64,000 nucleotides of DNA from Acidimicrobiales bacterium. Its GTDB lineage: Bacteria; Actinomycetota; Acidimicrobiia; Acidimicrobiales; CADCSY01. The translations under genes were made by a program, and so were the position numbers. Each line of letters opens with the position of its first letter. Positions within the stretch are counted from its first letter, which is position 1. The stretch lies in assembly GCA_035512495.1 (NCBI GenBank), contig DATKDW010000039.1, positions 10,753-74,752 of the forward strand. Reading direction: 5' to 3'. The notes beneath the pieces are model-generated. The model worked only from the letters and a program-made list of their open reading frames with translations. It made no database searches and was not told the origin of the DNA. Positions 4,070-30,039 of this stretch are shown piece after piece.

Positions 4070-7000
4070 TCAGCCGAAGTGGCGCCGGCGTCTCGCCCAA
4101 GCGACCAGGACGTCGGTGAGGAGGAGGAGCAAGGCAAGCCAGGCGAGGATGTGGGCGGTCTCGAAGAACGAGGGCCAGCCGAAGTCCGGCGGGTAGGCGT
4201 TGCGGGCCTGCTTGACGACGACATAGGCCCCGGCGGCGCCGATCAAGCCGACCGAGCCGAGAGCCATGGCCGCTCTGCCCCGCCGGACCAGCAGCGCGAG
4301 GAGGGCGAGGACGGCGACCAGCGGCCCTGCCCACGGGCGCAGGAGCAGGGCGGCGATGGCGCCTGCCGCCACCGCCACCGCTGCGGTGACGGTGACGTCG
4401 GGACGCCCCCCTGCGCCGGTGAGCGGTGAGTCCAACCACGGCTGCCAGGGCAGGGAGGTGTCCTCGTCGGGGATGAGATCGCCTCGGCGGCGGTCGAGCA
4501 CAGCGAGGGCGAGGCACAGCAGGACACCAAGTGCCGAGAGGGCGAGGGCAAGCCAGACCCATCGCTGCGGGGTCCAGCGCAGGGCGATGCTGAGCGTGTC
4601 GGCGTCTCCGGGCTCGACCCACCAGCCGTTGGCGTAGCCGTCGAGGATCCGTGGGGACCCGAGGTCACCGAGGCCGTCGGCCGAGGCCGCCCACCCGTCG
4701 TTGTGGCTCTGGCCGAGCACGAGCCAGAACGGGCCATCGATGGCGCTCACGTCGAGGTCGACGCTGCTGCGTCCCTGCCCGGTGACCTCGAGGACGGGCG
4801 AGGCGGTCGTGACCCCCGGGGTCGGGACATCGGCGGTGAGGACCAGTCGATCGAGGTCGATCCCCGTCGAACGTCCGTCGGCGGCGCGCAGCACCTGCTC
4901 ACCCGACGGAAGGTCCATGCCGCCGCTGATCGCTCCGCAGCCGCTCACCTGCAGGCCCTGCCTGCCGGTCCGGTTGCCGAGGGAGCCCGTGACACGCAGT
5001 GAGACGGGCTCGCCGTCGATGGTCGCAAGATCGGTGCGGCAGCCGGAGTCGACCTGGTCGGGCGTCGGGGGCATCCGCACCGGCAGGCTGATGTTGGCGA
5101 TCCCCACCGGCAGGGTGTGGGGGAAGTCAGAGAACGAGTCGGTCCCGGTGACCACGCGGACCTCCTCCACGACGAGGCGAACCGTCGTGGCCCGGACGGG
5201 CGGGAGGTCGAGCCGGGTGGTCGCCGTTGCCCCCTCGGTGGCCACGTCGTCCTGGTGGGCGACGTCGACCGTTGCGACCTCGCGCCCGTCGGCCACCACG
5301 CGGACTCGGGTGGGCACCGAGTGGCGGCCGTCGCGGACGACGGTGAGGTCGACGCCGTCAAGGTCCATCGGGGCGCCGGACTCGAGCTCGACCCACCGGC
5401 CGACCTGCTCGCCCACGGGCGGTCGCCAGACGGTCGAGGGGTCACCGTCGAAGGCTGACGCTGCCCGGGCGCCGATGTTGCCGACGATGCGGTCCGACGA
5501 CCGGGCGGCGGGGAGGCCCTCGTGGCCCAGCGCGGCATCGATGACGGCGTCGGGTGCTCGGGCCGACAACCGTGCCTGTCCGGTGAGCTCGAAGCGTCGG
5601 GGAGTGGGGAGCTCGAAGGCCCGGCTGAGCGCCACCTCCTCGTCGCTGCGGTAGAGCTCGCGCGGATCGGAGCGCGCTCGTGCCAGGAGGATCGTCAGGG
5701 GCTGGTCGGCGGACGCCTCGCCGGTGGTGGACAGCAGCGAGCGGGGGAGGCGCACGACCTCGTCGACGCGGATCCCGGCGACGTCGACCTCGGCGAAGCC
5801 CGCCGAGCTGAGGCCGTCGACCTCCACGCCGCGGTGGCTGTCGTCGACGACGATGACCTCGAGGGTGGTGAAGGTGCGCGACGCCCCGAGGGGGATCACC
5901 TGGCCGCCTTCGGTCCTCGACGCCTCGGTGAGGACGAACCGTCCCACGGGCTCGCCGTCGAGACGGAGCTCTACCTCGGTGATCCAGCGATTGCGGGCGC
6001 CGGTGAGGGTCTGGGTGAGACCCACCCGGTCGGTGGTGACGGGTGACTCCGCCTCCACGAGCAGTCGTTCGCCGATGACGTCGCCGAACGCTCCGGTGCG
6101 CCACGCCGTGGTGGGATTGCCGTCGAAGGCGTAGGCGGGGCGGTCCTCGGCGTTGTAGCTGATGTGGTTGCCGTAGCTCGAGGCCTGAACGCGCCGGACC
6201 CCGCGCTGCTCGACGACCGTCCGGGTGTCGTCGCCGGCGCCGGGGAACAGCAGGAGCCTCTGGTCGACGTCGGTGGCCTCGAGCGCGACCTCGCCGGTCT
6301 GCTCGGTGACGCCGACGTTCTCGCGCACCGTGTTCCAGCGACGTGCTCGCCGCCGGTTCGAGTCGGTCAGCACCAGCGTCGCGCCCCGATCGAGCATCGC
6401 GGCGCGGAGGTCTTCGGCATCGAGCAGGTCGGCGTCGTACAGCAGCGCCCCGGGTCCATCGAGGAGGCCGGCGGCAGCTGCCTCCACCACGCCCTCACCA
6501 TCGCCGGCGAGGATGATCGGGCGGCCGGCGGGCGCGACGCGGACGATGGGGCGGGGGTCCTTCACGGGAAAGATCGTCACGGGCGCGGGGTGGGGCGCAC
6601 CGGGGGGCGTGGCGAGGGTGATCTCGTCGACGAGGGGGATCGAGCGGACGGCGTCGTTCGGCGCCGGCGGGCCGAAGGTCACCGGCTCGGCCAGCCCCGT
6701 CGGGGTCGGCGTGAGCTCGGCCCGCAAGGCCCGGGGGCGAGGCGTCCGGTAGCGCTCGAACTGCAGGTCCGACCGCAAGAGCACGTCGCCGGCGCCGAGG
6801 AGGCGAGCCATCGGCGCCAGAGCGGCCGGGTCGAGGATGCCCTCCTGGAAGCGCCGGTCGAGGGCCATGAGGAGATCGGCCGACGGGGGTGAGCCGTAGG
6901 GGATCAGCTCCCGGGCCACCATGGGCCGGTCCATCAGACCGGGGAGCACGGGGTCGACGGTGTTGCCCCACCGGTACGAGGCGAAGTCGATCCCGGGGAC

Positions 7001-8422
7001 GACCAGGACCCGGGTGGCGTCACCGCGCTCGTCGAGCCAGGTGGCGGCCTCGTGCCAATGGGTGGGGATCTCCTCGGGACGCTCGAGGTTCTCCCCGATC
7101 ATGTCGCCCGTCCAGAGTGGGGGCAGCCCAGCGACCGCCAGGAGGACGGCGGCGAGCGTGGCGGGCAGCGCCAGGGGCGGCGAGCGCCGGGCCAGGGCGG
7201 AGATGCCGGCGGCCACCAGGACGGCGAGGGCGAGGGCGACGAGGGGGACCGCCCGAGGCGTGCTGCGGAGCGCCAGGCCCGCGGTCGATGAGGTCGCCAG
7301 GTCCGTGAACAGGGCGCCGAGCGGCGACGGGCCGTCGTAGGGGAAGGCCCCGACCGCCACGGCGGTGCCCACGGCGAGGAGGGTGACGAAGTAGGCGCGG
7401 TGCCGCCACCGGATGCCCACGCCAGCGGTGAAGGCGACCACGGGCACCGCGAACCCGATGGCGATGAGCCACAGCTCTTGGGTGTAGCTCCGTGCCGGCT
7501 CGATCCATGGCCCGAGGAGGTCGCCGCCGTAGAAGAACCAGTAGCCGAGCCCGCGGAGCACCTCCGAGGCCAGCGAGGTGCGGGCCACGGTCTCGACCGT
7601 CTCGGTGAATCGGAGGATGTCGATGCCGTAGGCGCCCTGGGCGGCCAGTCCGGCGATCCACCAGAGCGAGCACGCCAGGCTGAGGACGCCGATGCGCCCG
7701 GCGGCCCGGACGACCGTCGGACCGGTGATCTCCCGGTTCGACGCCATGGCGAACGGGAGCCACAGCAACGGCCCGATCCCCGCCATCACCAGGGCGGTGG
7801 CGTTGACTCCGCCGACGGTGGCCACCACCAGGGCGAAGAGGGCGGGGTGGCGCCACGTGCGCCGACGGACGGCGCGCTCGGTCAGGCCGATGAGCCAGGG
7901 GAGGGCAGCCCAGGGGAGCAGGATCACCGAGATGCGGGCCCCGTAGTGGAGGACGTACGGGCTGAGCATGTAGAGCGTCGCCGCCGCCAACATCCCCGGG
8001 CCGCGCCAGCGGAAGCTGCGAAGGAGGTAGAGCACCCCGGCGCCGGCCGCGAACATGACGGTGGCGAGCCAGAGGCGTTGGGAGACCCAGTCGGGTGACC
8101 CGAGGCGCTCGAAGACCCAGTACCAGGGCCCCATGGGCCAGAGGTAGCCGATGTTCTGGTGGGTCACGGTGCCGAGGCCGATGCTGGGGTCCCACATAGA
8201 CGCCGCTCGGGAGAGGAGGCGACCCGGGTCGAGGTAGAGGTAGGTCTTGGTGTCGGCCGCCACTCGTCCCGGCGAGGTGAGCACCAGGGGGACGTAGGCC
8301 ATGGCCACCAGCAGCAGGTGTCGCCCGACGGACGTTCGCCGGCGTCGGCGGGCCGCGACGATCCCCTCGTCGCTCTGGTCTCTGGGCGCGCGCCGTCGCC
8401 TGGGCCAGCGGGGACGCTTCAT
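4070..8422 (-). CDS. AftD-like alpha-(1->3)-arabinofuranosyltransferase homologue (giant GT-C, DUF3367-type) with discoidin/CBM-like modules
   Basis: 1450 aa. The N-terminal polytopic domain begins DTKTYLYLDPGRLL...WDPSIGLGTVTHQNIGYLWP, as in mycobacterial AftD. The central soluble part has two F5/8-type-C-like segments (FDGNPTTAWRTG..., FDGDPSTVWRPP...). TM helices close the C terminus. ATG 8422 overlaps the GT4 stop (ATGA). Confidence 0.9.
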   Translation of the reverse strand: MKRPRWPRRRRAPRDQSDEGIVAARRRRRTSVGRHLLLVAMAYVPLVLTSPGRVAADTKTYLYLDPGRLLSRAASMWDPSIGLGTVTHQNIGYLWPMGPWYWVFERLGSPDWVSQRLWLATVMFAAGAGVLYLLRSFRWRGPGMLAAATLYMLSPYVLHYGARISVILLPWAALPWLIGLTERAVRRRTWRHPALFALVVATVGGVNATALVMAGIGPLLWLPFAMASNREITGPTVVRAAGRIGVLSLACSLWWIAGLAAQGAYGIDILRFTETVETVARTSLASEVLRGLGYWFFYGGDLLGPWIEPARSYTQELWLIAIGFAVPVVAFTAGVGIRWRHRAYFVTLLAVGTAVAVGAFPYDGPSPLGALFTDLATSSTAGLALRSTPRAVPLVALALAVLVAAGISALARRSPPLALPATLAAVLLAVAGLPPLWTGDMIGENLERPEEIPTHWHEAATWLDERGDATRVLVVPGIDFASYRWGNTVDPVLPGLMDRPMVARELIPYGSPPSADLLMALDRRFQEGILDPAALAPMARLLGAGDVLLRSDLQFERYRTPRPRALRAELTPTPTGLAEPVTFGPPAPNDAVRSIPLVDEITLATPPGAPHPAPVTIFPVKDPRPIVRVAPAGRPIILAGDGEGVVEAAAAGLLDGPGALLYDADLLDAEDLRAAMLDRGATLVLTDSNRRRARRWNTVRENVGVTEQTGEVALEATDVDQRLLLFPGAGDDTRTVVEQRGVRRVQASSYGNHISYNAEDRPAYAFDGNPTTAWRTGAFGDVIGERLLVEAESPVTTDRVGLTQTLTGARNRWITEVELRLDGEPVGRFVLTEASRTEGGQVIPLGASRTFTTLEVIVVDDSHRGVEVDGLSSAGFAEVDVAGIRVDEVVRLPRSLLSTTGEASADQPLTILLARARSDPRELYRSDEEVALSRAFELPTPRRFELTGQARLSARAPDAVIDAALGHEGLPAARSSDRIVGNIGARAASAFDGDPSTVWRPPVGEQVGRWVELESGAPMDLDGVDLTVVRDGRHSVPTRVRVVADGREVATVDVAHQDDVATEGATATTRLDLPPVRATTVRLVVEEVRVVTGTDSFSDFPHTLPVGIANISLPVRMPPTPDQVDSGCRTDLATIDGEPVSLRVTGSLGNRTGRQGLQVSGCGAISGGMDLPSGEQVLRAADGRSTGIDLDRLVLTADVPTPGVTTASPVLEVTGQGRSSVDLDVSAIDGPFWLVLGQSHNDGWAASADGLGDLGSPRILDGYANGWWVEPGDADTLSIALRWTPQRWVWLALALSALGVLLCLALAVLDRRRGDLIPDEDTSLPWQPWLDSPLTGAGGRPDVTVTAAVAVAAGAIAALLLRPWAGPLVAVLALLALLVRRGRAAMALGSVGLIGAAGAYVVVKQARNAYPPDFGWPSFFETAHILAWLALLLLLTDVLVAWARRRRHFG

Positions 8423-9597
8423 CGACGCCGGCGTCGGTTCGCCTCGTCGGCCAGCGCCTGGAGGGTGCCGAGGGCGGTGGCCTCCCAGGTGAGGGGCGCG
8501 GCGTGGGCGCGGGCCCCCTCGGAGAGCCGGGCGCGCAGGGTGTCGTCGGAGAGGACCCGGTCGAGGCCGGAGACCAAACCGTCACGCCCGTCGACCAGCA
8601 GCCCGCTGCGGTCGGCGACGACGGCGTCGGCGTGACCGTTGATGTCGGTGACCACTGCCGGTGTGCCGCAGGCGGCCGCCTCGGTGATGGTCATTCCCCA
8701 TCCCTCGCGGGCCGACGCGCTGGTGAGCACCCAGGCGCGCCGGTAGAGCGAGATCAGCTCCTCCAACGGCAGGCGACCGGGCAGGTGCAGCCAGGAGCCG
8801 GCGTCGTGGGCGGCGATTCGCCGCTCGAGGTCGATGCGCTCGTAGCCCTCCCCGACGATGACCGCCTCGAGAGCGGGCTGGCGGGCCTTGAGCTCGACCA
8901 GGGCCTCGATCAGCAGGTCGTAGCGCTTCACCGGCACCAGCCTGCCGGCGGCGACCACCAACGGGTGCGGAGACCGCGCCTCGTCGCCCATCGTGAAGGC
9001 AGGCTCGACGCCCGGCGGGACCACGGTGACGCGGTCGTCGTGGTACCCGAGGTCGTCGACCAGCTCGCGCTTGGAGGACTCGGACAGCGTCACGATCCGC
9101 GACCGCCGGTACAGCAGCGGAGCGATGCGGCATTCGATGGTGTCGCCGATCGCCGCCAGCCTGGGTGGGAGGACCATCTGCCACATCTCGGCGTGCACGT
9201 GGTGCAGGAAGACGATCCGGGGCCCCCTCGCCCAGAGCGGGGAGAAGAAGGGCATGCCGTTCCAGATCTCGACCAGGCCGTCGGCCTTCCCGTAGCGCCC
9301 GACGGCCTCGGTGATGGCGGCGCGGGGGAAGACCATGTAGCGACCGGCCTTGCGGACCACGTCGTAGCCGTCCCGGCGCACACGGGGTGGGTGGCCCTGG
9401 GCGTAGGAGGTGCGGAGGAGCACCTCGATCCCGGCTTCGGCCCACAGCCGCGAGACGGTCGCGGCGTGGACCTCGGAGCCGCCCGCCTCCACGTCGTCGA
9501 GGTCGCGCCACGACACGAGGTGGATGCGGCGGAGCCCGGCGGACGCGGCGATGTCGCCGAGCTTGGCGATGTTGGACGCGTGATCGGAGGAGGTCAC
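8419..9597 (-). CDS. GT4-family glycosyltransferase (GT-B, retaining)
   Basis: The C-terminal half carries the GT4 signature EGWGMTITEAAACGTPAVVTD...G.LV. GTG start at 9597. A 4-nt overlap couples it to the AftD-like gene. Confidence 0.9.
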   Translation of the reverse strand: MTSSDHASNIAKLGDIAASAGLRRIHLVSWRDLDDVEAGGSEVHAATVSRLWAEAGIEVLLRTSYAQGHPPRVRRDGYDVVRKAGRYMVFPRAAITEAVGRYGKADGLVEIWNGMPFFSPLWARGPRIVFLHHVHAEMWQMVLPPRLAAIGDTIECRIAPLLYRRSRIVTLSESSKRELVDDLGYHDDRVTVVPPGVEPAFTMGDEARSPHPLVVAAGRLVPVKRYDLLIEALVELKARQPALEAVIVGEGYERIDLERRIAAHDAGSWLHLPGRLPLEELISLYRRAWVLTSASAREGWGMTITEAAACGTPAVVTDINGHADAVVADRSGLLVDGRDGLVSGLDRVLSDDTLRARLSEGARAHAAPLTWEATALGTLQALADEANRRRRR

Positions 9598-9760
9598 GCC
9601 GAGGGCTCGGTGGTCACGGAGGCGGGCTCGTCAGGATCGGGGACGGGTCGCCGGGCGTCGTGGACGCCAGCGGAGGGCGAACGGCAGCGATCTATCCTAG
9701 GTCACCCCCCTGCCGACGGCCCGACATCGACGACCGTCCGACCTACCCCGAGGCCGCCCA

Positions 9761-10510
9761 ATGCCCACGCCCGCATCGTTCCAGTCGACCTTCGCGTCGG
9801 TCGCCGACGTGGAGGGCTGGATGAGCGAGGGCCAGGCACGACTGCTCTGGGACCGGGCGTCGGCCCTCGGCGACGGCGACCTCGTGGTCGAGATCGGCAG
9901 CTACCACGGACGCTCGGCGATCGTGCTCGCCACCGCCGCCCCCGCGGGCGCCGAGGTGGTGGCGATCGATCCTCACGCAGGCAACGACCGCGGTCCTCAG
10001 CAGATCGTCGGGCCCGCCGAGGAGGGCCAGCGCGACCATGAGACCTACCTCGCCAACCTCCGGCGAGCGGGCGTTGCCGACCGGGTGCGCCACGTCCGGC
10101 TCCCCTCCCAGGAGGCCGGTGGGTCGGTCGACCGTCCGATCCAGCTTCTCTACATCGACGGTGCGCACCGCTTCGCACCGGCCAGGGCCGACATCGTCGA
10201 CTGGGGGAACCGGGTGGCCGAGGGTGGCACCCTGCTCATCCACGACTCGTTCTCCTCGGTGGGGGTCACCCTCGCCATCGCCACGACGCTGCTCGCCGGC
10301 GGTCGCTTCCGCTACGTCGACCGGTCACGGTCGATGGCCGAGTACCGGCGGGAGGACCTGTCACCGACGGGGCGGGCGACCAACGCGCTTCGTCAGGTGG
10401 CCCAGGTGCCGTGGTTCGCCCGCAACGTCGCCATCAAGGTGCTGATCGTCGCCCGGCTGGGGCGCCTCACCCGGCTGCTCGGTCACCGCGACCCCACCTG
10501 GCCGTACTGA
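9761..10510 (+). CDS. Class I SAM-dependent methyltransferase (Methyltransf_24/O-MT-like)
   Basis: VVEIGSYHGRSAIVLA glycine-rich SAM loop, LLYIDGAH and GGTLLIHD motifs. Divergent from the GT4 gene. Confidence 0.8.
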   Translation: MPTPASFQSTFASVADVEGWMSEGQARLLWDRASALGDGDLVVEIGSYHGRSAIVLATAAPAGAEVVAIDPHAGNDRGPQQIVGPAEEGQRDHETYLANLRRAGVADRVRHVRLPSQEAGGSVDRPIQLLYIDGAHRFAPARADIVDWGNRVAEGGTLLIHDSFSSVGVTLAIATTLLAGGRFRYVDRSRSMAEYRREDLSPTGRATNALRQVAQVPWFARNVAIKVLIVARLGRLTRLLGHRDPTWPY

Positions 10511-11260
10511 TCAGCCGAGAGGCCGGCTGCTGCGGGGGGCGGATCCCCGGCGGAGGACCCGGTCGCGGACGCCCCACCAGGTCATGAGCACCATCTCCTC
10601 GGCGATGATCCGCATCGACATCTTCGACTTCCCCCGCAGGCGGTCGGTGAAGGCGATGGGGACCTCGGTGATCCCCGCACCCAGTCGCGACATCCGGTAG
10701 GTGATCTCGAGCTGGATGCCGTAGCCGCGGGCGCGGGTGGCCGGGAGGTCGATCGCCTGGAGCGCCGTCGCCCGGTAGGCGCGGAACCCGGCGCTCGAGT
10801 CGGCCACCCCGGTGCGCATCGTGAACCCGGCGTAGCGGTTGCCGTAGCGCGAGAGGGCCTCGCGGTGCCACGGCCAGTCCGGGACGGACCCACCGGGGAC
10901 GTAGCGGGAGCCGATGACGACGTCGGCCCCGGCGTGGACCGCCTCGAGGAGCCGTGGGAGGACCGCCGGGTCGTGGGACAGGTCGGCGTCCATCTGCACG
11001 AGGATGTCGTAGCCCCGCTCGAGGCCGAGCCCGAGCCCGGCGCGGTAGGCGGGGCCGAGGCCGTCCTTCGAGGGCCGGTGGAGCACGTCGATGCCGCCGA
11101 GCGCGGCGGCAGCCGCCTCCGCCAGCGCGCCGGTGCCGTCGGGGCTGCTGTCGTCGACGACGAGGATGTCGACGTCTGGCAACACCTCGCGCACCCGGTG
11201 GAGCACCTCGGTGATGTTCAACGCTTCGAGGTAGGTGGGGATCACCACCAGGGTTCGCAT
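10511..11260 (-). CDS. Polyprenol-phosphate mannose synthase (Ppm1/Dpm1-like GT2)
   Basis: MRTLVVIPTYLEALNI..., VVDDSSPDGT, QMDADLSHDP, GSRYVPGG and FRAYR motifs are typical of Dpm1/Ppm1. ATG 11260. The longer track ORF extension is shadow overlapping the upstream gene. Confidence 0.9.
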   Translation of the reverse strand: MRTLVVIPTYLEALNITEVLHRVREVLPDVDILVVDDSSPDGTGALAEAAAAALGGIDVLHRPSKDGLGPAYRAGLGLGLERGYDILVQMDADLSHDPAVLPRLLEAVHAGADVVIGSRYVPGGSVPDWPWHREALSRYGNRYAGFTMRTGVADSSAGFRAYRATALQAIDLPATRARGYGIQLEITYRMSRLGAGITEVPIAFTDRLRGKSKMSMRIIAEEMVLMTWWGVRDRVLRRGSAPRSSRPLG

Positions 11261-11270
11261 CGGGGCGACA

Positions 11271-12998: not shown

Positions 12999-13022
12999 GC
13001 GCGGTCAGGGTAGTGGTGAGAG

Positions 13023-13358
13023 GTGGTGCGGGAACCGCCGCTAGTGTCGATCAACATGCTCCGGTTCGAGCGCCAGGTGGTGGCGTCGCTCATCGAGACC
13101 GATGACCGGGCACAGCGGGCGGCGATCGAGGACTACGTCGACGCGACCCTCAGTGACATGCCGGAGCACCTGCGTGCCGGAGTCGTCGCCGAGTCTCTCG
13201 CGCTCGCCGCTTGGGCCTTCGTGCGCCGGGCGTCGGCCGCCGAGGTGCTCTCCTCACTGCAGCGCAGCCCCGTCGGCCTCCTCCGCCAGTACGAGCGCCT
13301 CCTCGCCGGGCTGGTCCTCTTCGCCGAGCAGGAGCTGGTGGCGGGGCCCGCCACGTGA
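13023..13358 (+). CDS. Small hypothetical protein, first gene of the coupled operon
   Basis: Track ORF with GTG 13023 (alternative ATG 13056, MLRFERQVV...). Its stop overlaps the GMC oxidoreductase start (GTGA). No family recognised. Confidence 0.45.
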   Translation: MVREPPLVSINMLRFERQVVASLIETDDRAQRAAIEDYVDATLSDMPEHLRAGVVAESLALAAWAFVRRASAAEVLSSLQRSPVGLLRQYERLLAGLVLFAEQELVAGPAT

Positions 13359-16856: not shown

Positions 16857-16906
16857 GCCCCGGGGCGTCCCGGGATCGCCGGGGCCCGAAAGTATGCTCG
16901 CCTCCC

Positions 16907-18829: not shown

Positions 18830-18830
18830 C

Positions 18831-22354: not shown

Positions 22355-23624
22355 GGGCGACGGCGCCGGTGGCGGCCAGCACGACGATGGCAGGCTCAGC
22401 CGCCACCCGGAACCGCTGGTTCCCGTAGGTCACCGTCGTGGTGACGACGACGAGGACGACCGTCGACAGCATGGGCCACATCAGCGCCCGTCGGCGGCGG
22501 AGGACGATGATGCCCCCGACGGCGAAGGGCACGAGCAGCCAGTAGGTGCGGGTGCCGACCTCCTGCCAGCGCCGGTCGCGGCCCTCGAACGACTCCACGG
22601 TGACCTGCTGGCCGACGTCGTAGAGGCCCCAGGTGCGCCCCTGGCGGATGGCGAGCACGGTGGGCAGGCGACCAAGGTTGTCGGCCACGTAGCGCAAACC
22701 GCGGTCACGATGGAACGCCGCTGCCTCGGCCTCGTCCTGCTCGCTGAGGTCGAAGCCTCCGAAGCAATCGTAGAGCCAGAGCCCCGTTTGGCTGCCGTGG
22801 TAGGTGCGGTCGCAGTTGGCCCCGTCGAGGGCGGTGCCCATGTTGTTCGAGACCGGCACGAGGGCGCCGTCGAAGCGCACCGCGTTGCGGACCGTCCACG
22901 GGACGACCACGAGGGCGGCTGCGACCAGACCGACCAGGCAGAGGGTGGCGCGGCGGCGCCACGAGAGGTCAGCGACTCGCGCCGAGAGGGGGATGACGAG
23001 GAAGAGGACGAGTAGCAGCCCCTCGGCCCTGGTGAGGGCGGCGAGTCCAGCCGTGACCCCGACGAGGGCGATGTCGTCGAGGCCACGCCGCTCGGCAGCC
23101 CGGTGGGCGAAGAGGAGCGTCGTGGCGACGAGGAGGGCGAACGGCGTCTCCGGCATCAAGATGGCATCGCTCTGGAAGAGCATGGGGTAGACGGCCGCGA
23201 CGCCGGCGGCGACGAGGCCGACGAGGTCACCACCGACCCGGCGACCGAGGAGCCCGATCACGGCGACCGTCGCCGTGCCGACGACGCAGAGCACCAGCTG
23301 TTGTCCGTCGACCGAGGCGATGCCGACGAGGTGGGCGAGGGCCAGGACGGCGGGGAGCAGCGGGGGGTACTCGGCTGTCGGGCGGATCTCGCCGAGGATG
23401 GTGCGGTCGAAGGGCCGGATGAAGCCTCGGCCCTCGGCCAGGTTCTCGCCGAGCATGTGGTACGCCGCGGCGTCGCTCACCTCAGGGACCTGGGGGTCCA
23501 CCAGGAGCGTGAAGGCGACCCGTACGCCGAGCGCGACGACCACGATGACGAGCAGGCCGAGGGCGAAGCGCCGGGACCCTCGAGTGCCCTGGACCTCGGG
23601 TGGGCTCGGGTGGGGCTCGGTCAC
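22245..23624 (-). CDS. GT-C glycosyltransferase, ArnT/PMT_2-like
   Basis: Polytopic, with first-loop motif SDAAAYHMLGENLAEGRGF and a PWTVRNAVRF segment, both typical of the family. GTG 23624. The last 36 codons overlap the convergent GT2-MT gene. Confidence 0.8.
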   Translation of the reverse strand: MTEPHPSPPEVQGTRGSRRFALGLLVIVVVALGVRVAFTLLVDPQVPEVSDAAAYHMLGENLAEGRGFIRPFDRTILGEIRPTAEYPPLLPAVLALAHLVGIASVDGQQLVLCVVGTATVAVIGLLGRRVGGDLVGLVAAGVAAVYPMLFQSDAILMPETPFALLVATTLLFAHRAAERRGLDDIALVGVTAGLAALTRAEGLLLVLFLVIPLSARVADLSWRRRATLCLVGLVAAALVVVPWTVRNAVRFDGALVPVSNNMGTALDGANCDRTYHGSQTGLWLYDCFGGFDLSEQDEAEAAAFHRDRGLRYVADNLGRLPTVLAIRQGRTWGLYDVGQQVTVESFEGRDRRWQEVGTRTYWLLVPFAVGGIIVLRRRRALMWPMLSTVVLVVVTTTVTYGNQRFRVAAEPAIVVLAATGAVALIDEARRRTGGRSRTEAAPVRSAAAPGGSAPSPPGR

Positions 23625-23686
23625 GGCGGCATGCTACGGCGGGGCCCGGCTTCGTCCGGCTCGGGTCGCCCTTACCATGTGCGGCC

Positions 23687-25045
23687 GTGCCGACCGCGAC
23701 CACCCGGACCGGAGCGACCCCGCCGCCCGGCCTCACGACGACGGCTCCCCGAGGCGCACCCTGGTCAGGGGCCGGCAGCACCCGCTGGTGGCTGCTCGGG
23801 ATCGTGGTCCTCGGCGTCGCCCTGCGGGTGGCGTGGGCGCTCTACGCCACTCGTCAGCCGGTCGGTCTCCACGACCCGACCTTCTACACGGTCTTCGCCG
23901 AGGAAATCGCCCGGGGGAACGGCTACCGCCTCCCCGACGGCCAGCCGACCGCCTACTACCCCGTCGGCTACCCGGCTGTCCTGGGAGCCCTCTTCTGGCT
24001 CGCCGACCACAGCCCGTTGCCGGACGGCCGGATGGGCCTCGTGGTGGGGCTCAACCTCGCCTGCGCCGCATCGTCGCTCGTGCTGGTCTTCCTGATCGGG
24101 CGCCGGCTCTTCGACCAGCGAGTTGCCCTCCTCGCCGCGGGCATCATGGCCGTCTTCCCGAACCTGGTCTTCCACGCCGCCCTGGCACTGACCGAGACGC
24201 TCTTCATCACCCTGGCCCTGCTCGCGGTGCTGGTGCTGGTGTCGACCCCATGGGAGCGACGTCCGCTCGGCGCCCTGGTCGGCTTCGGGCTGCTCGTGGG
24301 CCTCTCTGCCCTGGTCCGTCCGCCGTCCCTCCTCTTCCTGCCCGTCCTCGCGCTGGTCGGCTGGTGGGGTGCCGGTTGGGGATGGCGGGCGGTCGGTCGA
24401 TCGGTGCTGGTCGCCGGCCTTGCGGCCGTCGCGGTGATCGCCCCTTGGACGCTCCGAAACGCGGTGGTCATGACGTCGCCGGTGATCATCTCGACGAACA
24501 TGGGCGACAACCTCTGCATCGGGAACAACCCGGAGGCCACCGGCGCCTTCCAGATGCCCCCGTCGTGCCTCGACGGCTACGACCACCTCGAGCGGCCGGA
24601 GTACGAGCTGCGCCGTGACGCCGAAGGTCGCCGGAAGGGGCTGGAGCACATCCTCGGCCAGCCGGCCGACCAGCTCCGCCTCGTCCCGCTCCGGCTGTTC
24701 CACACCTTCAAGGACGACACCGACGGGCTCCACGCCGCCGAGAGCTACGGCGCCGACCCGTTCATCCCCCCCTTTCGGCGCTCGATCCTGGAGGCAGTCG
24801 CCAACGCGGTCTTCTTCGCCACCCTGCTGACGGCGATGGCTGCCATGCCGTGGTTGCTGCGGGGTCGAGACCCGGGCCGCCTGCTCCTGCTGCTGAGTGC
24901 TGTGTCGCTCGTCCTCCCGCCGCTGGTCTTCTTCGGCGACGTCCGCTTCCACGTTCCGATGATCCCCTTCCAGGTCCTGGCGGCTGCGGCCCTGCTGGGA
25001 GCACTGGCCGACATGGTGCGCGCCCGGTGGGCAGCCGACCGCTGA
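23687..25045 (+). CDS. GT-C glycosyltransferase, ArnT/PMT_2-like (paralogue of 22245..23624)
   Basis: HDPTFYTVFAEEIARGNGY first-loop motif and a PWTLRNAVVM segment. GTG 23687 is preferred over track start 23600, which would overlap the divergent gene. Confidence 0.8.
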   Translation: MPTATTRTGATPPPGLTTTAPRGAPWSGAGSTRWWLLGIVVLGVALRVAWALYATRQPVGLHDPTFYTVFAEEIARGNGYRLPDGQPTAYYPVGYPAVLGALFWLADHSPLPDGRMGLVVGLNLACAASSLVLVFLIGRRLFDQRVALLAAGIMAVFPNLVFHAALALTETLFITLALLAVLVLVSTPWERRPLGALVGFGLLVGLSALVRPPSLLFLPVLALVGWWGAGWGWRAVGRSVLVAGLAAVAVIAPWTLRNAVVMTSPVIISTNMGDNLCIGNNPEATGAFQMPPSCLDGYDHLERPEYELRRDAEGRRKGLEHILGQPADQLRLVPLRLFHTFKDDTDGLHAAESYGADPFIPPFRRSILEAVANAVFFATLLTAMAAMPWLLRGRDPGRLLLLLSAVSLVLPPLVFFGDVRFHVPMIPFQVLAAAALLGALADMVRARWAADR

Positions 25046-25057
25046 TCCGGCACCGGA

Positions 25058-25208: not shown

Positions 25209-25243
25209 AGCACCGCGCTGGTCTCCTGACGTAGCCTGTCGTC

Positions 25244-25699
25244 ATGGCACGAGCAGCGCAGACCTACACGGCCGCCCAGGCGGCGAAGATCCTGTCGGTA
25301 TCGGAGCGACGCGTCCGACAGCTGGTCTCAGAGGGGAAGCTGGACGGATCACGCGACGGCGGGGGTGTCGTGCAGCTCTCGCAGCGTTCGGTGAGCGAGG
25401 AGCGCAAGCGGCGGCAGGCGAGCGGGAAGGGCTCGGCGTCGCGCGCGCCGGCTCGGTCCCGGGCGACGAAGGCGTCGGTCGATGTCGACCAGATCGCGGA
25501 GAAGGTGGCGTCCGCCGTCAGTCAGCGCCTGGAGGGGCAGATCGAGATCACCCGGCGGGCCGAGAGCCTCGTCCGGTCGGAGCTAGACGAGGAGCGGGCG
25601 CGGCGGATGGAAGCAGAGGCGAAGCTCGCCGAGGCCCAGCGGCGGATCGCCGAGCTCGAGGCCGCCTCGGAGAAGAAGCGCGGCCTGTTCCGGCGGTGA
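25244..25699 (+). CDS. Excisionase/MerR-type helix-turn-helix DNA-binding protein with C-terminal coiled coil
   Basis: YTAAQAAKILSVSERRVRQLVSEGKL is a typical HTH_17-like motif. The C terminus is a charged helix (RRMEAEAKLAEAQRRIAELEAASEKKR). Confidence 0.65.
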   Translation: MARAAQTYTAAQAAKILSVSERRVRQLVSEGKLDGSRDGGGVVQLSQRSVSEERKRRQASGKGSASRAPARSRATKASVDVDQIAEKVASAVSQRLEGQIEITRRAESLVRSELDEERARRMEAEAKLAEAQRRIAELEAASEKKRGLFRR

Positions 25700-25719
25700 C
25701 GGCTCAGCGGTGACGGAGC

Positions 25720-27273
25720 TCAGCCGCTCCGGAGCCGGCGCTGTTCGGCCGCCGCGTCCTGCACCGCCCTCGGGATGATCGGTGCGGCCCGGCCGGACCG
25801 GCTGACGCGCACGTCCTCGGGTCCCTCGGCGGCGCGTTCCTCGTGGTACTCCTCCTCGACGTTGACCGCCCAGATGTCGTGGCGGGCGCCGAGGATGTTC
25901 TCGACGGTGAGCATTGCCGTCATCATCGAGTGGTCCTGGTTGTTGTACCGGTGCATGCCATTGCGGCCGACGGGGTGCACGTTGGGAGCATGCTCGGCCA
26001 GCCAGGCCCGGAGGACGTCGACGTTGGCCCGGTAGTGCTCGTCGTAGGTCGGATAGGCCTTGGGCATGCGCACGACGTAGCCGGCCTCGACGCGGGCAGG
26101 ATCGACGAGCCCGAGTGTGGCGAGCTCGCGGGCGCCGAGGGCGATGAGATCGTCGTCGGCCATGGTCCAGAGGTGGTCGCCCTCGAACACGAAGTACTCC
26201 AGTCCGAGGCAGGTCCGACCCTCCTTCACCAGGTAGGGCGACCAGGAGCCGAAGTTCTGGATGCGGCCCAGGTGGACGTCGGCGGAGTGGACGTAGATCC
26301 AGTTGTCCGGGAAGCCGGCTTCCTCCGGCACCACCAGCGCCACGGTGAGGAAGTCGCGGAACTTGAGGTCATCGGCGGCCGCCCGCACGGCGTCGGGCAC
26401 CGGTGGGTCCATGGCCCGGATCAGCGACGGGAGAGGCATCGACGAGACGACGTCGGTGCAGGGGTGGGCGGACTCCACGCCGTCTCGCACCCACACCACC
26501 TCGACGGCCCGGCCGCCATCGTGGCGGACCTTGGTGACCCGGGCCTCCATGACGACGTCGGAGCCCGCCTCTACGACCAGGTCGCGGCAGCGCTCCCACA
26601 TCATGCCGGGACCGTACTTGGGGTACTGGAACTCCTCGATCAGCGAGGCGATGTCCTTCTGGTTGCGCTTCGGCAGGAGCGCGTTGAGCACGGCGGTGAA
26701 GAGCGAGAGGTTCTTGATCCGCTGGGCCGCCCAGTCGGCCTGGATCTCAGTGGCGGGCACGCCCCAGACCTTCTCGGTGTAGGTCTTGAAGAACGTGCGG
26801 TACAGGCGGGCACCGAAGCGGGCCGAGACCCAGCCCTCGAAGTTCGACTGGTCCTTCGGTGGCCGGACGCGCGCCCAGACGTACGAGAGGACACAGAGGA
26901 CGGCCTCGACGACGCCGAGGTTCCTCAGGGCGTTGCCGGCCTTCAGGGGGTAGTCGTAGAACTTGCCTCCGTAGAAGATGCGGCTCATGCGCGGCCGCAT
27001 GAGGAAGTCCTCGTCGGGGAGGATCTCGTGCCAGAGCGCCTCCACCTCTCGGACCTTGGTGAAGAACCGGTGACCGCCGATGTCGAAGCGCCAGCCGTCG
27101 CGCTCCGCCGTCTGACTGATGCCGCCGACGACGTCGGTCGACTCGAGGACCGTCGACCGCTCACCAGCCTTCGCCAGCTGGTAGGCGGCGGTCAGGCCGG
27201 CGGGGCCGGCGCCGATGATGACGACCTCGTGGGGGTCGGGAGCGGGGTGCGTGTCGCCTTGCGGCGGGGCCAT
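25720..27273 (-). CDS. NAD(P)/FAD-dependent oxidoreductase (amine-oxidase / UDP-galactopyranose-mutase-like fold)
   Basis: ATG 27273 gives MAPPQGDTHPAPDPHEVVIIGAGPAGLTAAYQLAKAGERSTVLESTDVVGG (dinucleotide fold). GGHRFF and GRNGMHRYNNQDHSM follow later. The upstream track extension is shadow. Confidence 0.85.
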   Translation of the reverse strand: MAPPQGDTHPAPDPHEVVIIGAGPAGLTAAYQLAKAGERSTVLESTDVVGGISQTAERDGWRFDIGGHRFFTKVREVEALWHEILPDEDFLMRPRMSRIFYGGKFYDYPLKAGNALRNLGVVEAVLCVLSYVWARVRPPKDQSNFEGWVSARFGARLYRTFFKTYTEKVWGVPATEIQADWAAQRIKNLSLFTAVLNALLPKRNQKDIASLIEEFQYPKYGPGMMWERCRDLVVEAGSDVVMEARVTKVRHDGGRAVEVVWVRDGVESAHPCTDVVSSMPLPSLIRAMDPPVPDAVRAAADDLKFRDFLTVALVVPEEAGFPDNWIYVHSADVHLGRIQNFGSWSPYLVKEGRTCLGLEYFVFEGDHLWTMADDDLIALGARELATLGLVDPARVEAGYVVRMPKAYPTYDEHYRANVDVLRAWLAEHAPNVHPVGRNGMHRYNNQDHSMMTAMLTVENILGARHDIWAVNVEEEYHEERAAEGPEDVRVSRSGRAAPIIPRAVQDAAAEQRRLRSG

Positions 27274-27394
27274 GGGTACTCGCAGACTCGTCGGTGGAGC
27301 ACGAACGGTGCTGACCCTACCGTCGAGCCGCGACGGCCATGCACATCGTGGCGGACCCCAATGAGCCCGCCGGGCAGGACTACCGTGGCGCCCC

Positions 27395-28924
27395 GTGCCC
27401 TCCAGCCGCGCCGACGCCGGACCCCCGCCGGTGCTCGTCGTCGCCCTCGTCCTCGCCGTGGTGGCGGGGGTCGTCCTCCGGGCGTGGAGCCGGTCGGACC
27501 TCTGGCTCGACGAGGCGCTGACGGTCAACATCGCCAGCCTGCCGGTCGGCGAGATGGTCGATGCCCTGGAGCGCGACGGGCATCCTCCGCTCTACTACCT
27601 GCTCCTGCACGGCTGGATGCGGCTCGTCGGCTCGGGTGACCTCGCCGTCCGGACCCTCTCGGGACTCCTCGGTGTCGTCGCCCTGCCGCTGATGGCGCTC
27701 GTCGGCCGGCGCCACGGAGGAGCGCCCGTGGCTGTTGCCGCCCTCGTCATCCTGACGACCTCGCCGTTCGCCGTGCGGTACGCCACCGAGGTGCGGATGT
27801 ACGCCCTGGTGATCGTGCTCGTGCTGCTCGGCTGGCTGGCGCTGCGGCAGGCCCGGTCGGCGCCCAGCGCGCCCTGGCTGGTCGCCGTCGCGGCGGTCAG
27901 CGGCCTCCTCCTGCTGACCCACTACTGGGCCTTCTTCCTCCTCGCCGCCGTCGGCGGAGCCCTGGCGTGGGAGGCGTGGCGGGTCGGCCCGGGTGACCTC
28001 CGCCGGACCGCGACGAGGCTGGCGGTCGGTGTCGCCGCCGGTGGGATCCTCTTCCTGCCGTGGTTGCCGTCGTTCCTGGTCCAGGCGGGCAGCACCGGGA
28101 CCCCGTGGGGCAGGCCGGAGCGACCGGCCACGGTGCTCATGGTGACCCTCCGGGACTTCGGTGGCGGAGCCAACGCCGAGGCCGAGCTGCTGGGCTTCCT
28201 CCTCCTCGCCCTCGTGGCCATCGGACTCCTCGGACGAGCGGTGGGCAGCAGTCGCGTCGAGCTCGACCTGAGGACCCGACCGGGTGTGCGTCCGGAGGCG
28301 GTCGTCGTCGGCGCGACCCTGGGCATCGGAGTGGTCGCCGGCTACGTCTTCGACAGCGCCTTCGCCAGCCGGTACGCCGCGATCATCTTGCCCCTGGTGG
28401 TGCTGATGGCGGCCGTGGGGGTCGTGCAGCTCCCTCGTGCATCGGTGCAAGCCGGTGTCCTAGCGGTCCTCGCGGTCCTCGGCCTCCTCGGCGGGGCGCG
28501 CAACCTCGTCACCCAACGGACCCAGGCCGGCCAGGTCGCTTCGGCCGTCACCGCGACGGCCTCGTCGGGCGACGTCGTGGCCTACTGCCCAGACCAGCTC
28601 GGTCCGGCGGTGAGCCGACTCCTGCCCGACGACCTCCGCCAGCTGGCGCTCGCCGACGACGTGGCCCCCCACTTCGTGGACTGGGTCGACTACGCCGACC
28701 GCATGGCGGAGGCCGACACCGCAGCGTTCGCCGCCGAGGTCGACGAGCTCGCCGGTGACCGGACCGTGTGGCTGGTGTGGTCTGGGGGCTACCGCACGCT
28801 CGAGGGAACCTGTGAGGCGCTTACCAACGACCTCGCCGTCCTCCGACCCGACCGCACCGTGATGGTGGAATCGGGCGAGCAGTTCGAGCACGCGTGGCTC
28901 TTCCGGTTCGGGCCGACTGGGTGA
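27395..28924 (+). CDS. GT-C glycosyltransferase, family 39/PMT_2-like
   Basis: First loop LWLDEALTVNIA...DGHPPLYYLLLHGW, many TM helices and a soluble C-terminal domain. GTG 27395. Confidence 0.8.
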   Translation: MPSSRADAGPPPVLVVALVLAVVAGVVLRAWSRSDLWLDEALTVNIASLPVGEMVDALERDGHPPLYYLLLHGWMRLVGSGDLAVRTLSGLLGVVALPLMALVGRRHGGAPVAVAALVILTTSPFAVRYATEVRMYALVIVLVLLGWLALRQARSAPSAPWLVAVAAVSGLLLLTHYWAFFLLAAVGGALAWEAWRVGPGDLRRTATRLAVGVAAGGILFLPWLPSFLVQAGSTGTPWGRPERPATVLMVTLRDFGGGANAEAELLGFLLLALVAIGLLGRAVGSSRVELDLRTRPGVRPEAVVVGATLGIGVVAGYVFDSAFASRYAAIILPLVVLMAAVGVVQLPRASVQAGVLAVLAVLGLLGGARNLVTQRTQAGQVASAVTATASSGDVVAYCPDQLGPAVSRLLPDDLRQLALADDVAPHFVDWVDYADRMAEADTAAFAAEVDELAGDRTVWLVWSGGYRTLEGTCEALTNDLAVLRPDRTVMVESGEQFEHAWLFRFGPTG

Positions 28925-30039
28925 GGGAGCTGGCGGGGAAGCTGCCGAGGGACCTCCGGGCGGCCCTGCCGGCCTGGGCCCTCGCCCGCGTCGCCGTCGC
29001 GCTCGGCGCCCTCGTGGCGATCGTCGTCTCCGACGAGCTCTTGGCAGGGGTACGACCCCTCCAGCTGGAGCAGGGGCTCTTCGCATGGGATGCGGCGTTC
29101 TACCGAGACATCGCCGACCACGGCTACGAGGGCGTGGCCCGGGAGGCACTCCGGTTCTTCCCTCTCGTCCCCCTCCTGGCCGCCCTGCTGGCGGTCCCCC
29201 TCCTGGGCAATGTGGGTGTCGCGCTCATCCTCGTCGCCAACATGGCGGCGCTCGCTGCAGGGGCGCTGCTGCACCGGCTCGCCCGGACCGAGACCGGTGA
29301 CACCGACCTCGCGGGTCGCGCCGCCTGGCACCTCGCGCTGCTACCGCCGGCGCTGGTGCTCGTGCTCGGCTACGCCGAGTCGGTGATGCTGGCGCTCAGC
29401 ATTGCCACGTTCCTCGCGCTGCGCCGCCAGCGCTGGTGGAGCGCAGCGATCTTCGGGTTCCTGAGCGCCCTCAGCCGGCCCCTCGGCGCCGCCCTCGCCC
29501 TGCCGGCGGCCATCGAGGGAGCCCGCGGCCTCCGCGAGGCGACCCCGGGAGAGCGGGTGGCGCGCCTCGGCGCCGTGGTCGGCCCGGTGGCCGGGCTCTT
29601 CTCGTACCTGGTCTGGGTGCAAGTCCGCTTCGGCGACTGGCGCTTCCCCGTCGAGCTCCACGCGTCGGAGGAGCTCCGAGGCGGCTTCGTGAACCCGGTG
29701 GTGCGCATCTTCCAGTCCGGGGCCGCCCTGCTCGGGGACGGCACCTTCGGCGATGGGCTCCACCTGCCCTGGATCGTGCTGTTCCTCGGCCTGCTCGTGG
29801 TGTGCTTCCGAACCCTGCCGGTGTCCTATGGCGCCTATGCGGCCGTGCTGCTGGCGGCGGCGCTCTCGGCCGAGAGCCTCGGGTCCTTCGAGCGCTACGG
29901 CCTGGCGGCGTTCCCCCTGGTGCTCGGCCTAGCCATCGTGACGCGCCCCGCCTGGCTCGACCGCCTCGCCGTCACCAGCGCCGCCGCCGGGCTGGTGGCG
30001 TTCACCACGATGGCTCTGCTCGGTACCTTCGTCCCATGA
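28921..30039 (+). CDS. PIG-V-like mannosyltransferase (GT-C) candidate
   Basis: WDAAFYRDIADHGY matches the PIG-V/GT76 loop motif, and the protein is polytopic. GTG 28921 overlaps the previous stop (GTGA). An alternative GTG lies at 28894. Confidence 0.7.
   Translation: MRELAGKLPRDLRAALPAWALARVAVALGALVAIVVSDELLAGVRPLQLEQGLFAWDAAFYRDIADHGYEGVAREALRFFPLVPLLAALLAVPLLGNVGVALILVANMAALAAGALLHRLARTETGDTDLAGRAAWHLALLPPALVLVLGYAESVMLALSIATFLALRRQRWWSAAIFGFLSALSRPLGAALALPAAIEGARGLREATPGERVARLGAVVGPVAGLFSYLVWVQVRFGDWRFPVELHASEELRGGFVNPVVRIFQSGAALLGDGTFGDGLHLPWIVLFLGLLVVCFRTLPVSYGAYAAVLLAAALSAESLGSFERYGLAAFPLVLGLAIVTRPAWLDRLAVTSAAAGLVAFTTMALLGTFVP

Follow-up and report, generated by a model that had tools for sequence, protein, structure and literature searches.

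A stretch of 64,000 nucleotides from the genome of an Acidimicrobiales bacterium (GenBank assembly GCA_035512495.1, contig DATKDW010000039.1, positions 10,753 to 74,752; this whole stretch is referred to here as the window) contains, at positions 4070-30039, a locus of 18 genes (g04 to g21), eight of which encode glycosyltransferases of the C fold class (GT-C). The remaining 38 kb of the window encode none, and the clustering of these genes, combined with the conserved synteny described below, is far beyond chance. Genes in the window, which has a G+C content of approximately 72%, were called by their third-position GC (GC3), with starts refined afterwards, and this recovered every gene of an initial annotation at the same coordinates.

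All eight polytopic proteins at 4070-30039 are GT-C enzymes, because five of them (g04, g16, g17, g20 and g21) score above Pfam cut-offs, the AlphaFold2 models of g08 and g14 resemble enzymes of this fold, and g13 is a paralogue of g14. They comprise one AftD-type protein, three PMT_2 proteins, one PIG-V-like protein and three that were assigned via AlphaFold/Foldseek or paralogy. The initial annotation had counted eight GT-C-like membrane proteins and left several without a family; Pfam models, structure prediction and paralogy bear out the count, and the g14 and g08 models support the fold. Furthermore, an acidic residue is found just after the first transmembrane segment (TM1) in all eight, in the predicted first extracytoplasmic loop: the D of DTK in g04, the invariant E66/E67 in g08, the invariant D62 in g14, the D of ILDLA in g13, and the motifs SDAAAY in g16, HDPTFY in g17, LDEA in g20 and WDAAFY in g21. 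The loop motifs that had been pointed out before, LWLDEA in g20 and WDAAFYRDIADHGY in g21, are both present. With respect to known envelope glycosyltransferases, no Pfam or NCBIfam model for Emb, AftA, AftB, AftC or PimE/Mpt matches any of the eight at E≤0.01, in agreement with the earlier statement that, AftD apart, no such motifs can be recognised; AftA, EmbA, AftB and PimE appear as distant structural neighbours only, in Foldseek searches with the g14 and g08 models.

The locus is not confined to this genome. The g14 and g08 homologues belong to Acidimicrobiia, including Iamia, Iamiaceae, Microthrixaceae, Acidimicrobiaceae and many metagenome-assembled genomes (MAGs); nearly all are named 'hypothetical protein', no g14 homologue has a Pfam domain, and few g08 homologues carry PF13231. 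For a survey of synteny, 26 proteins of the window were compared by tblastn with 38 related loci, each 20 kb or longer, where g14, as the search anchor, is present in all 38 by construction. The unnamed GT-C g13 was found in 34 of them, g08 and g10 in 29 each, g15 in 27 and the block g09-g10-g11-g12 in 26-29, followed by the GT4 gene g05 (22), g07 (21) and g19 (20); AftD was seen in 14 of 38, which is an undercount caused by the 10-kb limit on the flanks. Gene order is nearly unchanged in two long contigs whose g14 orthologues have 59% and 43% identity, and g13 usually adjoins g14 in the related loci, from which the housekeeping genes flanking the locus in the window are essentially absent. 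Since the order of modules is shuffled among the loci and the modules nevertheless remain together, their co-localisation points to functional linkage and not to an inherited neighbourhood. The synteny that had been put forward for checking thus exists across many Acidimicrobiia genomes.

Two observations concern the related loci themselves. One of them (L023, CAMBEL010000016.1), titled 'MAG: Bifidobacterium breve', carries an Acidimicrobiia-type locus with a g14 orthologue of 44% identity and is probably a mislabelled or contaminated bin. In another (L003/L015, contig_33300, 1.06 Mb, a long-read-style assembly), the GMC oxidase, one short-chain dehydrogenase/reductase (SDR) and the g13 orthologue are in fragments, for which frameshift errors are a more likely cause than pseudogenes.

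The first of the eight, g04 (4070-8422, minus strand), is an AftD-family GT-C of 1450 amino acids. It matches the GT-C_AftD profile PF11847 with E 1.6e-101 over profile positions 6-652 of 661, and it carries an F5/8-type-C domain as well as CBM_AftD (28.3 bits, cut-off 27). About 11 N-terminal and 5 C-terminal transmembrane segments are predicted, such that the protein consists of an N-terminal GT-C domain, predicted periplasmic carbohydrate-binding modules (CBMs) and a C-terminal bundle of five helices (residues 1291-1443). A phmmer alignment with Mycobacterium abscessus AftD (6wbx) has an E-value of 2e-39 and covers the N-terminal 570 residues only; g04 keeps the DTK motif after TM1 as well as equivalents of E251 and D474 (M. 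abscessus numbering), whereas E475 aligns with Pro; these three residues are proposed catalytic candidates only (bioRxiv 10.1101/2019.12.22.885152). g04 may act as AftD does and transfer D-arabinofuranose from decaprenyl-phospho-D-arabinofuranose (DPA) in alpha-(1->3) linkage. AftD-type CBMs also point to a large polysaccharide as its acceptor, and AftD homologues were earlier reported in 11 other orders of the class Actinobacteria, always without known function (bioRxiv 10.1101/2019.12.22.885152).

Translationally coupled to g04 is g05 (8419-9597, minus strand), a cytoplasmic GT4 enzyme (Glycos_transf_1/Glyco_transf_4) whose nearest solved structures are MshA (3c48, 1.6e-16), PimB' (3okc, 1e-13) and PimA (2gej, 5e-9). 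It adjoins the AftD gene in the same orientation in 11 of the 14 loci showing both, and it is a candidate maker of the glycolipid or primer. It is followed by g06 (9761-10510, plus strand), an S-adenosylmethionine-dependent methyltransferase (Methyltransf_24, PF13578, E 1.2e-20) kept between g05 and g07 in 13 of the 38 loci, and by g07 (10511-11260, minus strand), a soluble GT2 enzyme. The latter resembles polyprenyl-phosphate-mannose synthases, aligning over its full length (residues 1-237) with the Pyrococcus Dol-P-Man synthase 5mlz (E 4e-33); its best NCBIfam models (AglJ, PpgS, Dol-P-hexose transferase and ArnC) all stay below their equivalog cut-offs, and we infer its mannose specificity from this resemblance. 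The initial annotation had listed one GT4 and two methyltransferase domains, here found by Pfam matches in g05, g06 and g15 (20837-22354), as well as two GT2 enzymes of the polyprenyl-phosphate-sugar-synthase type, g07 and g15, which agree with the matches to 5mlz and ArnC.

Two further GT-Cs of the locus, g13 (16907-18829, plus strand, 640 amino acids) and g14 (18831-20840, plus strand, 669 amino acids), are paralogues of an unnamed family (33% identity over 337 residues, E 8e-22). Neither has a Pfam or NCBIfam match, and g14 matches no PDB sequence. The AlphaFold2 model of g14 has a mean predicted local distance difference test score (pLDDT) of 91.6 and a predicted TM-score (pTM) of 0.92, and its top ten Foldseek matches in the PDB are all GT-Cs (AglB, ArnT, AftA, STT3, ALG12, EmbA), each with a probability of 1.0; beyond these, MFS transporters follow with a probability of at most 0.2. 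By its model, g14 is a divergent GT-C. G61-D62 is invariant right after TM1, and the protein ends in an alpha/beta domain. The family has 5171 cluster representatives (clustered at 50% identity) at E≤1e-3 and 1766 at E≤1e-30. Attempts to join it to a known family gave nothing coherent: a profile of the family against PDB sequences returned noise (opioid receptors at E ~0.1), a Pfam scan of 57 members gave scattered chance matches (DUF2142 in 2 of 57), and hhalign with the g08 family reached a probability of 26%, i.e., no demonstrable sequence relation. As a speculation by analogy with EmbA-EmbB, the constant pairing of g13 and g14 might indicate a heteromeric transferase.

The other GT-Cs belong to more familiar types. 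The PMT_2 profile PF13231 (cut-off 26.1 bits) matches g16 (22245-23624, minus strand) with 47.1 bits, g17 (23687-25045, plus strand) with 37.3 bits and g20 (27395-28924, plus strand) with 45.0 bits. g08 (11271-12998, minus strand, 575 amino acids) reaches 19.7 bits, below the cut-off, and some of its orthologues carry the domain. Its AlphaFold2 model (pLDDT 87.2, pTM 0.88) has an ArnT-like fold, with ArnT 5f15 as the best Foldseek match (E 8e-8, TM-scores 0.50/0.53, probability 1.0), and all further matches are GT-Cs (STT3, AglB, PglB, AftA, AftB, PimE, ALG3/9/12 and Pmt4). The g08 family is highly conserved in Acidimicrobiia, with GPPMEEGFML invariant after TM1. The stop of g20 overlaps the start of g21 (28921-30039, plus strand) in GTGA, coupling the two; g21 is PIG-V-like (PF04188, 26.5 bits, cut-off 22.4), with a match that spans only positions 56-196 of the 443-position profile, and its orthologue in L003 also carries PF04188. 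Weak similarity over the full length links g20 to the model for MT1671/Rv1635c-type mannosyltransferases (44 bits, cut-off 900), and none of the PMT_2-type proteins reaches the ArnT equivalog level (NF009784, 18.5 bits against a cut-off of 567).

These PMT-like features raise the question whether the GT-Cs might O-glycosylate secreted, S-layer or SLH proteins, in the manner of Pmt/Ppm1 in Streptomyces and Mycobacterium. Four proteins match PMT_2 and two of them PMT as well, g07 looks like a Dol-P-Man synthase, and SLH-domain proteins are encoded in the window. However, the PMT matches are weak, no protein reaches the PMT cut-off (PF02366), PMT_4TMC and MIR domains are absent, and g08 is structurally most similar to ArnT, its matches to oligosaccharyltransferases being weaker. 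Furthermore, the CBMs of the AftD-type protein and the linked DPA pathway (see below) indicate a polysaccharide substrate, and we regard protein O-glycosylation as improbable.

The genes g16 and g17 are paralogues (32% identity, E 4e-23). In the near-collinear relatives L001 and L003 there is a single PMT_2 gene at this position, the g17 orthologue, which follows g15, and from this comparison g16 appears to be an extra copy. It converges on g15, with 110 bp shared at the 3′ end of the latter. Downstream of g17 lies g18 (25244-25699, plus strand), a small DNA-binding protein of the HTH_17 family (PF12728, 28 bits) that occurs in none of the 38 related loci. Together, g16 and g18 look like a lineage-specific insertion or duplication within the locus.

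The centre of the locus is a single translationally coupled operon on the plus strand, g09 through g15 (13023-22354). Stop and start overlap between g09 and g10 (GTGA), g10 and g11 (ATGA), and g11 and g12; after a gap of 50 bp, coupling resumes through g13, g14 and g15 (with a GTGA overlap of the last two). It begins with g09 (13023-13358), a conserved protein of 111 amino acids from no known family (no Pfam match even at E 1), which is present in 26 of the 38 loci, always beside the GMC gene. The latter, g10 (13355-14779), is a flavin oxidoreductase of the GMC family (GMC_oxred_N/C) that is closest to pyranose and sugar oxidases (pyranose oxidase 8qve, E 1.4e-12). Next come two extended SDRs with intact TGxxGxxG and YxxxK motifs: g11 (14776-15825; PF01370, E 3e-40), which is of the epimerase/dehydratase type and for which OleD, HpnA and RmlB are the best NCBIfam models, all below cut-off, and g12 (15825-16856; PF01370, E 2.3e-42), with HpnA as best NCBIfam model and PDB matches to the decarboxylating 3-beta-hydroxysteroid dehydrogenase 6jkg, GalE 2p5u and UXS. 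An assignment of either as an ordinary GalE or RmlB found no support, every equivalog score being far below its cut-off. GalE-like SDRs that epimerise polyprenyl-phosphate-pentofuranoses have a precedent in Citrobacter, where such an enzyme converts Und-P-Ribf to Und-P-Xylf (PMC11127046). The last gene of the operon, g15 (20837-22354), encodes a fusion of an ArnC-like GT2 domain (PF00535; ArnC 9hwj, E 7e-14) and a class-I methyltransferase (Methyltransf_11/23). At the other end, only 24 bp (12999-13022) lie between the start codons annotated for g08 and g09, which diverge; the transcripts would thus lack leaders, unless the actual starts are located downstream of the annotated ones.

One could imagine that g09-g15 modifies a membrane lipid, by an Arn-like route as on lipid A or a HpnA-like one as on hopanoids, to give a glycosylated or methylated head group. 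This would suit the SDRs, which score best against the lipid-acting models HpnA, OleD and SdmB, and also the ArnC-like g15 and the ArnT-like g08. However, those NCBIfam scores are far below cut-off, aminotransferase, formyltransferase and deformylase genes are missing from the locus, and in most genomes the operon is found in physical linkage with AftD and other glycan genes, so that lipid modification seems very improbable.

Between g18 and g20, g19 (25720-27273, minus strand) encodes a flavoprotein similar to eukaryote-type UDP-galactopyranose mutases (UGMs). It aligns over its full length with the Aspergillus fumigatus enzyme AfUGM (3ute/4u8l, E 3e-24) and over residues 2-450 with Trypanosoma cruzi UGM (4dsg). 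It keeps the GGH loop (H63) and the equivalents of R182, W315, Y317, R327, R447, Y453 and N457 (AfUGM numbering), whereas N207 is replaced by Ile and Y334 by Trp. In the A. fumigatus enzyme, these positions serve as flavin loop and in substrate binding and catalysis. By NCBIfam, g19 belongs to the equivalog NF005548 (PRK07208, 814 bits), which is named 'hypothetical protein', and the level of bacterial Glf is not reached (TIGR00031, 34 bits, cut-off 304). A reading as amine oxidase or phytoene desaturase was rejected in view of the full-length UGM alignment and the UGM residues, and g19 is best read as a candidate pyranose-to-furanose mutase-type enzyme. This brings the flavin/NAD redox enzymes of the locus to four (the GMC oxidase, the two extended SDRs and g19), one more than the three counted at first; the UGM-like enzyme, the epimerase/dehydratase type of the two SDRs and the operon described next had not been recognised in the initial annotation.

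A gap-free operon at 40717-43756 (minus strand), 10.7 kb downstream of the GT-C locus, encodes three enzymes of DPA synthesis, all at equivalog level: the decaprenylphospho-2-keto-ribose reductase DprE2 as the first gene (42995-43756; NF053786, 329 bits, cut-off 250), the UbiA-family decaprenyl-phosphate phosphoribosyltransferase (42093-42998; NF008978, 367 bits, cut-off 207) and the decaprenylphospho-ribose 2'-oxidase DprE1 (40717-42096; NF053785, 611 bits, cut-off 500). This pathway makes the arabinofuranose donor that Emb and Aft enzymes use in mycobacteria. In one related locus (L065) the DPA operon is fused into the GT-C locus, with genes for GT2, GT4, GMC, both SDRs, AftD, g14, g15, g13, g08, DprE2, DprE1 and UbiA all contiguous within ~20 kb, and UbiA lies within 10 kb of the GT-C locus in three more (L049, L063 and L064). 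The operon itself is conserved in L082-L084 and common in Acidimicrobiales, often with a HAD phosphatase and GT-C and GT4 neighbours; a HAD gene adjoins it in L083 and L084. In the window, neither a phosphoribose 5-phosphatase (Rv3807c or HAD-PRP type) nor an Rv3789-type flippase is encoded beside the operon. Following g21, an HhH-GPD base-excision glycosylase gene (30036-30683, plus strand) overlaps the g21 stop with its start (ATGA), and after it comes a HAD/PNKP-type phosphatase (HAD_PNKP, ~30.7-31.2 kb, plus strand) that is not conserved at other loci; this protein might take the place of the missing decaprenyl-P-ribose-5-P phosphatase, but as a candidate it is weak.

Immediately upstream of the DPA operon, a secreted glycoside hydrolase of family GH43 with SLH domains is encoded (43790-45535, minus strand), and the adjacency of this gene to DprE2, UbiA and DprE1 recurs in L082 (69% identity). 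Its SLH domains imply a secondary cell-wall polymer. An assignment as D-arabinanase was not adopted in view of the substrate range of GH43, whose members act on L-arabinans and xylans.

Because two GT2 enzymes resembling polyprenyl-phosphate-sugar synthases and a DPA operon are located together with the GT-Cs, the GT-Cs may, on this indirect ground, draw on polyprenyl-phosphate-linked sugar donors. The idea of an assembly outside the membrane from such donors, raised in the initial annotation, is strengthened by the matches to 5mlz and ArnC and by the DprE2/UbiA/DprE1 operon. We therefore consider it reasonably probable that the locus is the core of an envelope-glycan assembly system in which lipid-linked donors are used, on the outside of the cytoplasmic membrane, to make a heteropolysaccharide or a lipoglycan similar to lipoarabinomannan (LAM) or arabinogalactan. 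The mycobacterial gene logic that had been proposed is supported by the genes, and the undescribed heteroglycan proposed along with it would be the likely product.

Starting from what is observed, namely folds and families, operon structure, synteny and the presence of the DPA pathway, donor pairings, acceptor and product can be pictured as follows. In the cytoplasm, the GT4 enzyme g05 would glycosylate a lipid or primer acceptor. Outside the membrane, the eight GT-Cs would take single sugars from polyprenyl-phosphate carriers: polyprenyl-phosphate-mannose made by g07 would serve the PMT_2- and PIG-V-type enzymes g08, g16, g17, g20 and g21, and DPA supplied by DprE2-UbiA-DprE1 would serve g04 and possibly other GT-Cs. 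The operon g09-g15 could form a self-contained 'tailor, charge, transfer' unit for a further, third lipid-linked sugar, in which the GMC oxidase and the SDRs would tailor, g15 would charge the carrier, and g13/g14 would transfer, perhaps as a heterodimer comparable to EmbA-EmbB. In its logic, this unit would parallel ArnA/ArnC/ArnT, DprE1/DprE2 and the Citrobacter SDR mentioned above. Finally, g19 might supply a furanose nucleotide sugar.

A more specific proposal is that Acidimicrobiia, which branch deeply within Actinomycetota and are mostly uncultured, make an envelope glycan that contains D-arabinofuranose and resembles arabinomannan or arabinogalactan, by means of the AftD-type enzyme and the DPA pathway, with unrecognised GT-C families (g13/g14; g08) in the roles of Emb, AftA-C and Mpt, and a third donor provided by a GMC/SDR module that parallels DprE1/DprE2. 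We put this forward tentatively, as a possibility clearly less secure than the general one.

Several points weigh against an envelope-glycan assembly locus of this kind. The donor-to-transferase pairings are all guilt by association. In this genome, unrelated genes separate the DPA operon from the GT-C locus by 10.7 kb; the position of AftD E475 is occupied by Pro in g04; the TM-scores of g14 are modest to low (0.33-0.44), which is why we call it divergent; and g11 and g12 score best, although well below cut-off, against the lipid-acting models mentioned above. The whole-cell sugars of a cultured member of the Iamiaceae, Actinospongicola halichondriae, are rhamnose, ribose, mannose and galactose, with arabinose unreported (PMC12263773). 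Such a composition fits a mannan and a galactan and not an arabinan; the genome of this strain was not checked for the locus. Furthermore, in profile scans and an open reading frame scan the window showed neither Wzx/Wzy or an ABC exporter nor a nucleotidyltransferase or a small flippase-like reading frame, and it encodes no priming phosphoglycosyltransferase, LCP ligase or flippase (GtrA, SMR, MATE); a search of the whole window for a small polytopic flippase frame (GtrA, SMR or similar) likewise returned none. The earlier claim that Wzx/Wzy, ABC exporter and nucleotide-sugar synthase genes are lacking thus holds for the first two and for nucleotidyltransferases, but enzyme types that modify nucleotide sugars are present.

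The lack of a primer transferase, Wzx/Wzy and ABC exporter in the locus would be expected if the GT-Cs merely added single side-chain sugars to a backbone made elsewhere, for example a teichoic-acid-like polymer or a secondary wall polymer that anchors SLH proteins, the locus then being a gathering of several three-component systems that glycosylate a polymer after its polymerisation. A polyprenyl-phosphate-sugar synthase with a GT-C and optional epimerases is indeed a widespread three-component logic (PMC11127046), the SLH-domain protein at 43790-45535 implies a wall polymer to which it binds, and in L084 the DPA operon lies beside Wzm/Wzt genes. However, eight GT-Cs for only two or three donor systems exceed what decoration usually needs, an AftD-type enzyme with multiple CBMs and paralogous GT-C pairs resemble the polymer-building Emb, Aft and Mpt sets, the locus has no flippase, and it is conserved class-wide instead of being serotype-variable. 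We consider backbone decoration unlikely, though less so than the two alternatives discussed above. We prefer the assembly of an envelope glycan to all three, since it better explains why AftD-type CBMs, sets of paralogous GT-Cs, the link to DPA and conservation throughout the class occur in combination.

It is instructive to compare the locus with the lipomannan (LM)-LAM and arabinogalactan systems of mycobacteria and corynebacteria. Shared features are a cytoplasmic GT4 step followed by extracytoplasmic GT-C steps, a GT2 of the polyprenyl-phosphate-mannose-synthase type, UbiA, DprE1 and DprE2 at equivalog level, an AftD-family enzyme with CBMs and a C-terminal transmembrane bundle, and a mutase-type flavoenzyme. 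However, mycobacterial Emb, AftA, AftB, AftC, PimE/Mpt (GT87), GlfT1/2, WecA and Wzm/Wzt have no homologue in the Acidimicrobiia locus, which instead has PMT_2- and PIG-V-type GT-Cs as well as two families without a Pfam or NCBIfam model. In place of bacterial Glf it has a mutase of the eukaryote-like PRK07208 type, and a GMC oxidase, two SDRs and a GT2-methyltransferase module are added. The locus also belongs to a different class, Acidimicrobiia, for which no mycolate envelope is known. In comparison with AftD itself (Rv0236c; M. abscessus 6w98/6wbx), g04 shares the nearly full-length PF11847 match, the architecture and the residues DTK, E251 and D474, but it is divergent in sequence, deviates at E475 and has another neighbourhood with a GT4 partner.

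The Arn system (ArnA-ArnC-ArnT), GtrABV and the PPPRS/MATE/GT136 system of C. youngae (PMC11127046) have in common with the locus the sequence of tailoring (SDR), charging (GT2/UbiA) and transfer (GT-C), and g15 is ArnC-like and g08 ArnT-like. In contrast to these systems, the locus has no flippase, aminotransferase or formyltransferase genes, and it contains a GMC oxidase with a small partner, a paralogous pair of unnamed GT-Cs and a synthase-methyltransferase fusion. Another comparison is with the diacylglycerol-anchored lipoglycans of Actinobacteria without mycolates, such as the lipomannan of Micrococcus luteus (PMC3836763). In both cases a membrane-anchored mannan is plausible, made by a GT4 priming step and then by GT-Cs that depend on polyprenyl-phosphate-mannose, but the lipoglycan genes are only partly known, and no lipoglycan of this kind is known to involve an AftD/DPA component or to occur in Acidimicrobiia. 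No characterised cluster matches the locus gene for gene; such a match is what the initial annotation had named as a refutation. Our literature search returned no paper with both Acidimicrobiia and AftD, and the papers with Acidimicrobiia and arabinogalactan, by title and abstract, are apparently not about envelope arabinogalactan. Taken together, Acidimicrobiia probably build an undescribed arabinan/mannan-type envelope polymer outside the membrane.

The cell envelope of Acidimicrobiia has hardly been described, even though members of the class abound in soils, freshwater, oceans and wastewater. For their presumed main envelope glycan, the locus provides a concrete set of genes that spans the class and can be tested. 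With this locus the AftD/DPA machinery, a target of antitubercular DprE1 inhibitors and ethambutol-type chemistry, reaches well beyond mycolate bacteria, and the locus bears on the evolution of arabinan and lipoglycans within Actinomycetota. It also exposes at least one large GT-C family, with thousands of members and a confident AlphaFold model, that has no relative in Pfam, NCBIfam or PDB sequences, and a new way of tailoring lipid-linked donors may lie in its GMC-oxidase/SDR/GT2-methyltransferase operon. If the glycan indeed contains D-arabinofuranose, DPA-dependent arabinan synthesis would predate the mycolate lineage, and g13/g14 and g08 would found new glycosyltransferase families.

The remainder of the window holds a number of features apart from the locus. 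The ARAGORN predictions of a tRNA-Gly (99 nt, 49636-49734, plus strand) and a tRNA-Asp (60657-60727, minus strand) lie inside high-GC3 genes for an alpha/beta hydrolase and a CLC channel, respectively, and are probably false positives. A 493-residue Pro/Ala-rich protein with one or two hydrophobic segments is encoded at 34290-35771 (minus strand) and has no Pfam match even at E 1. At 31541-31608 (minus strand), the Rfam model of the small RNA ASdes matches with 57 bits (gathering score 40), antisense inside an acyl-ACP-desaturase-type gene (31238-32179); this may reflect only the conserved desaturase coding sequence. Finally, the G+C content falls to 0.66-0.67 at 50000-54000, where a SnoaL-like protein (50256-50747) and a secretory lipase (52428-53336) are encoded with poorly coding DNA between them, and this stretch may be acquired or degraded DNA.

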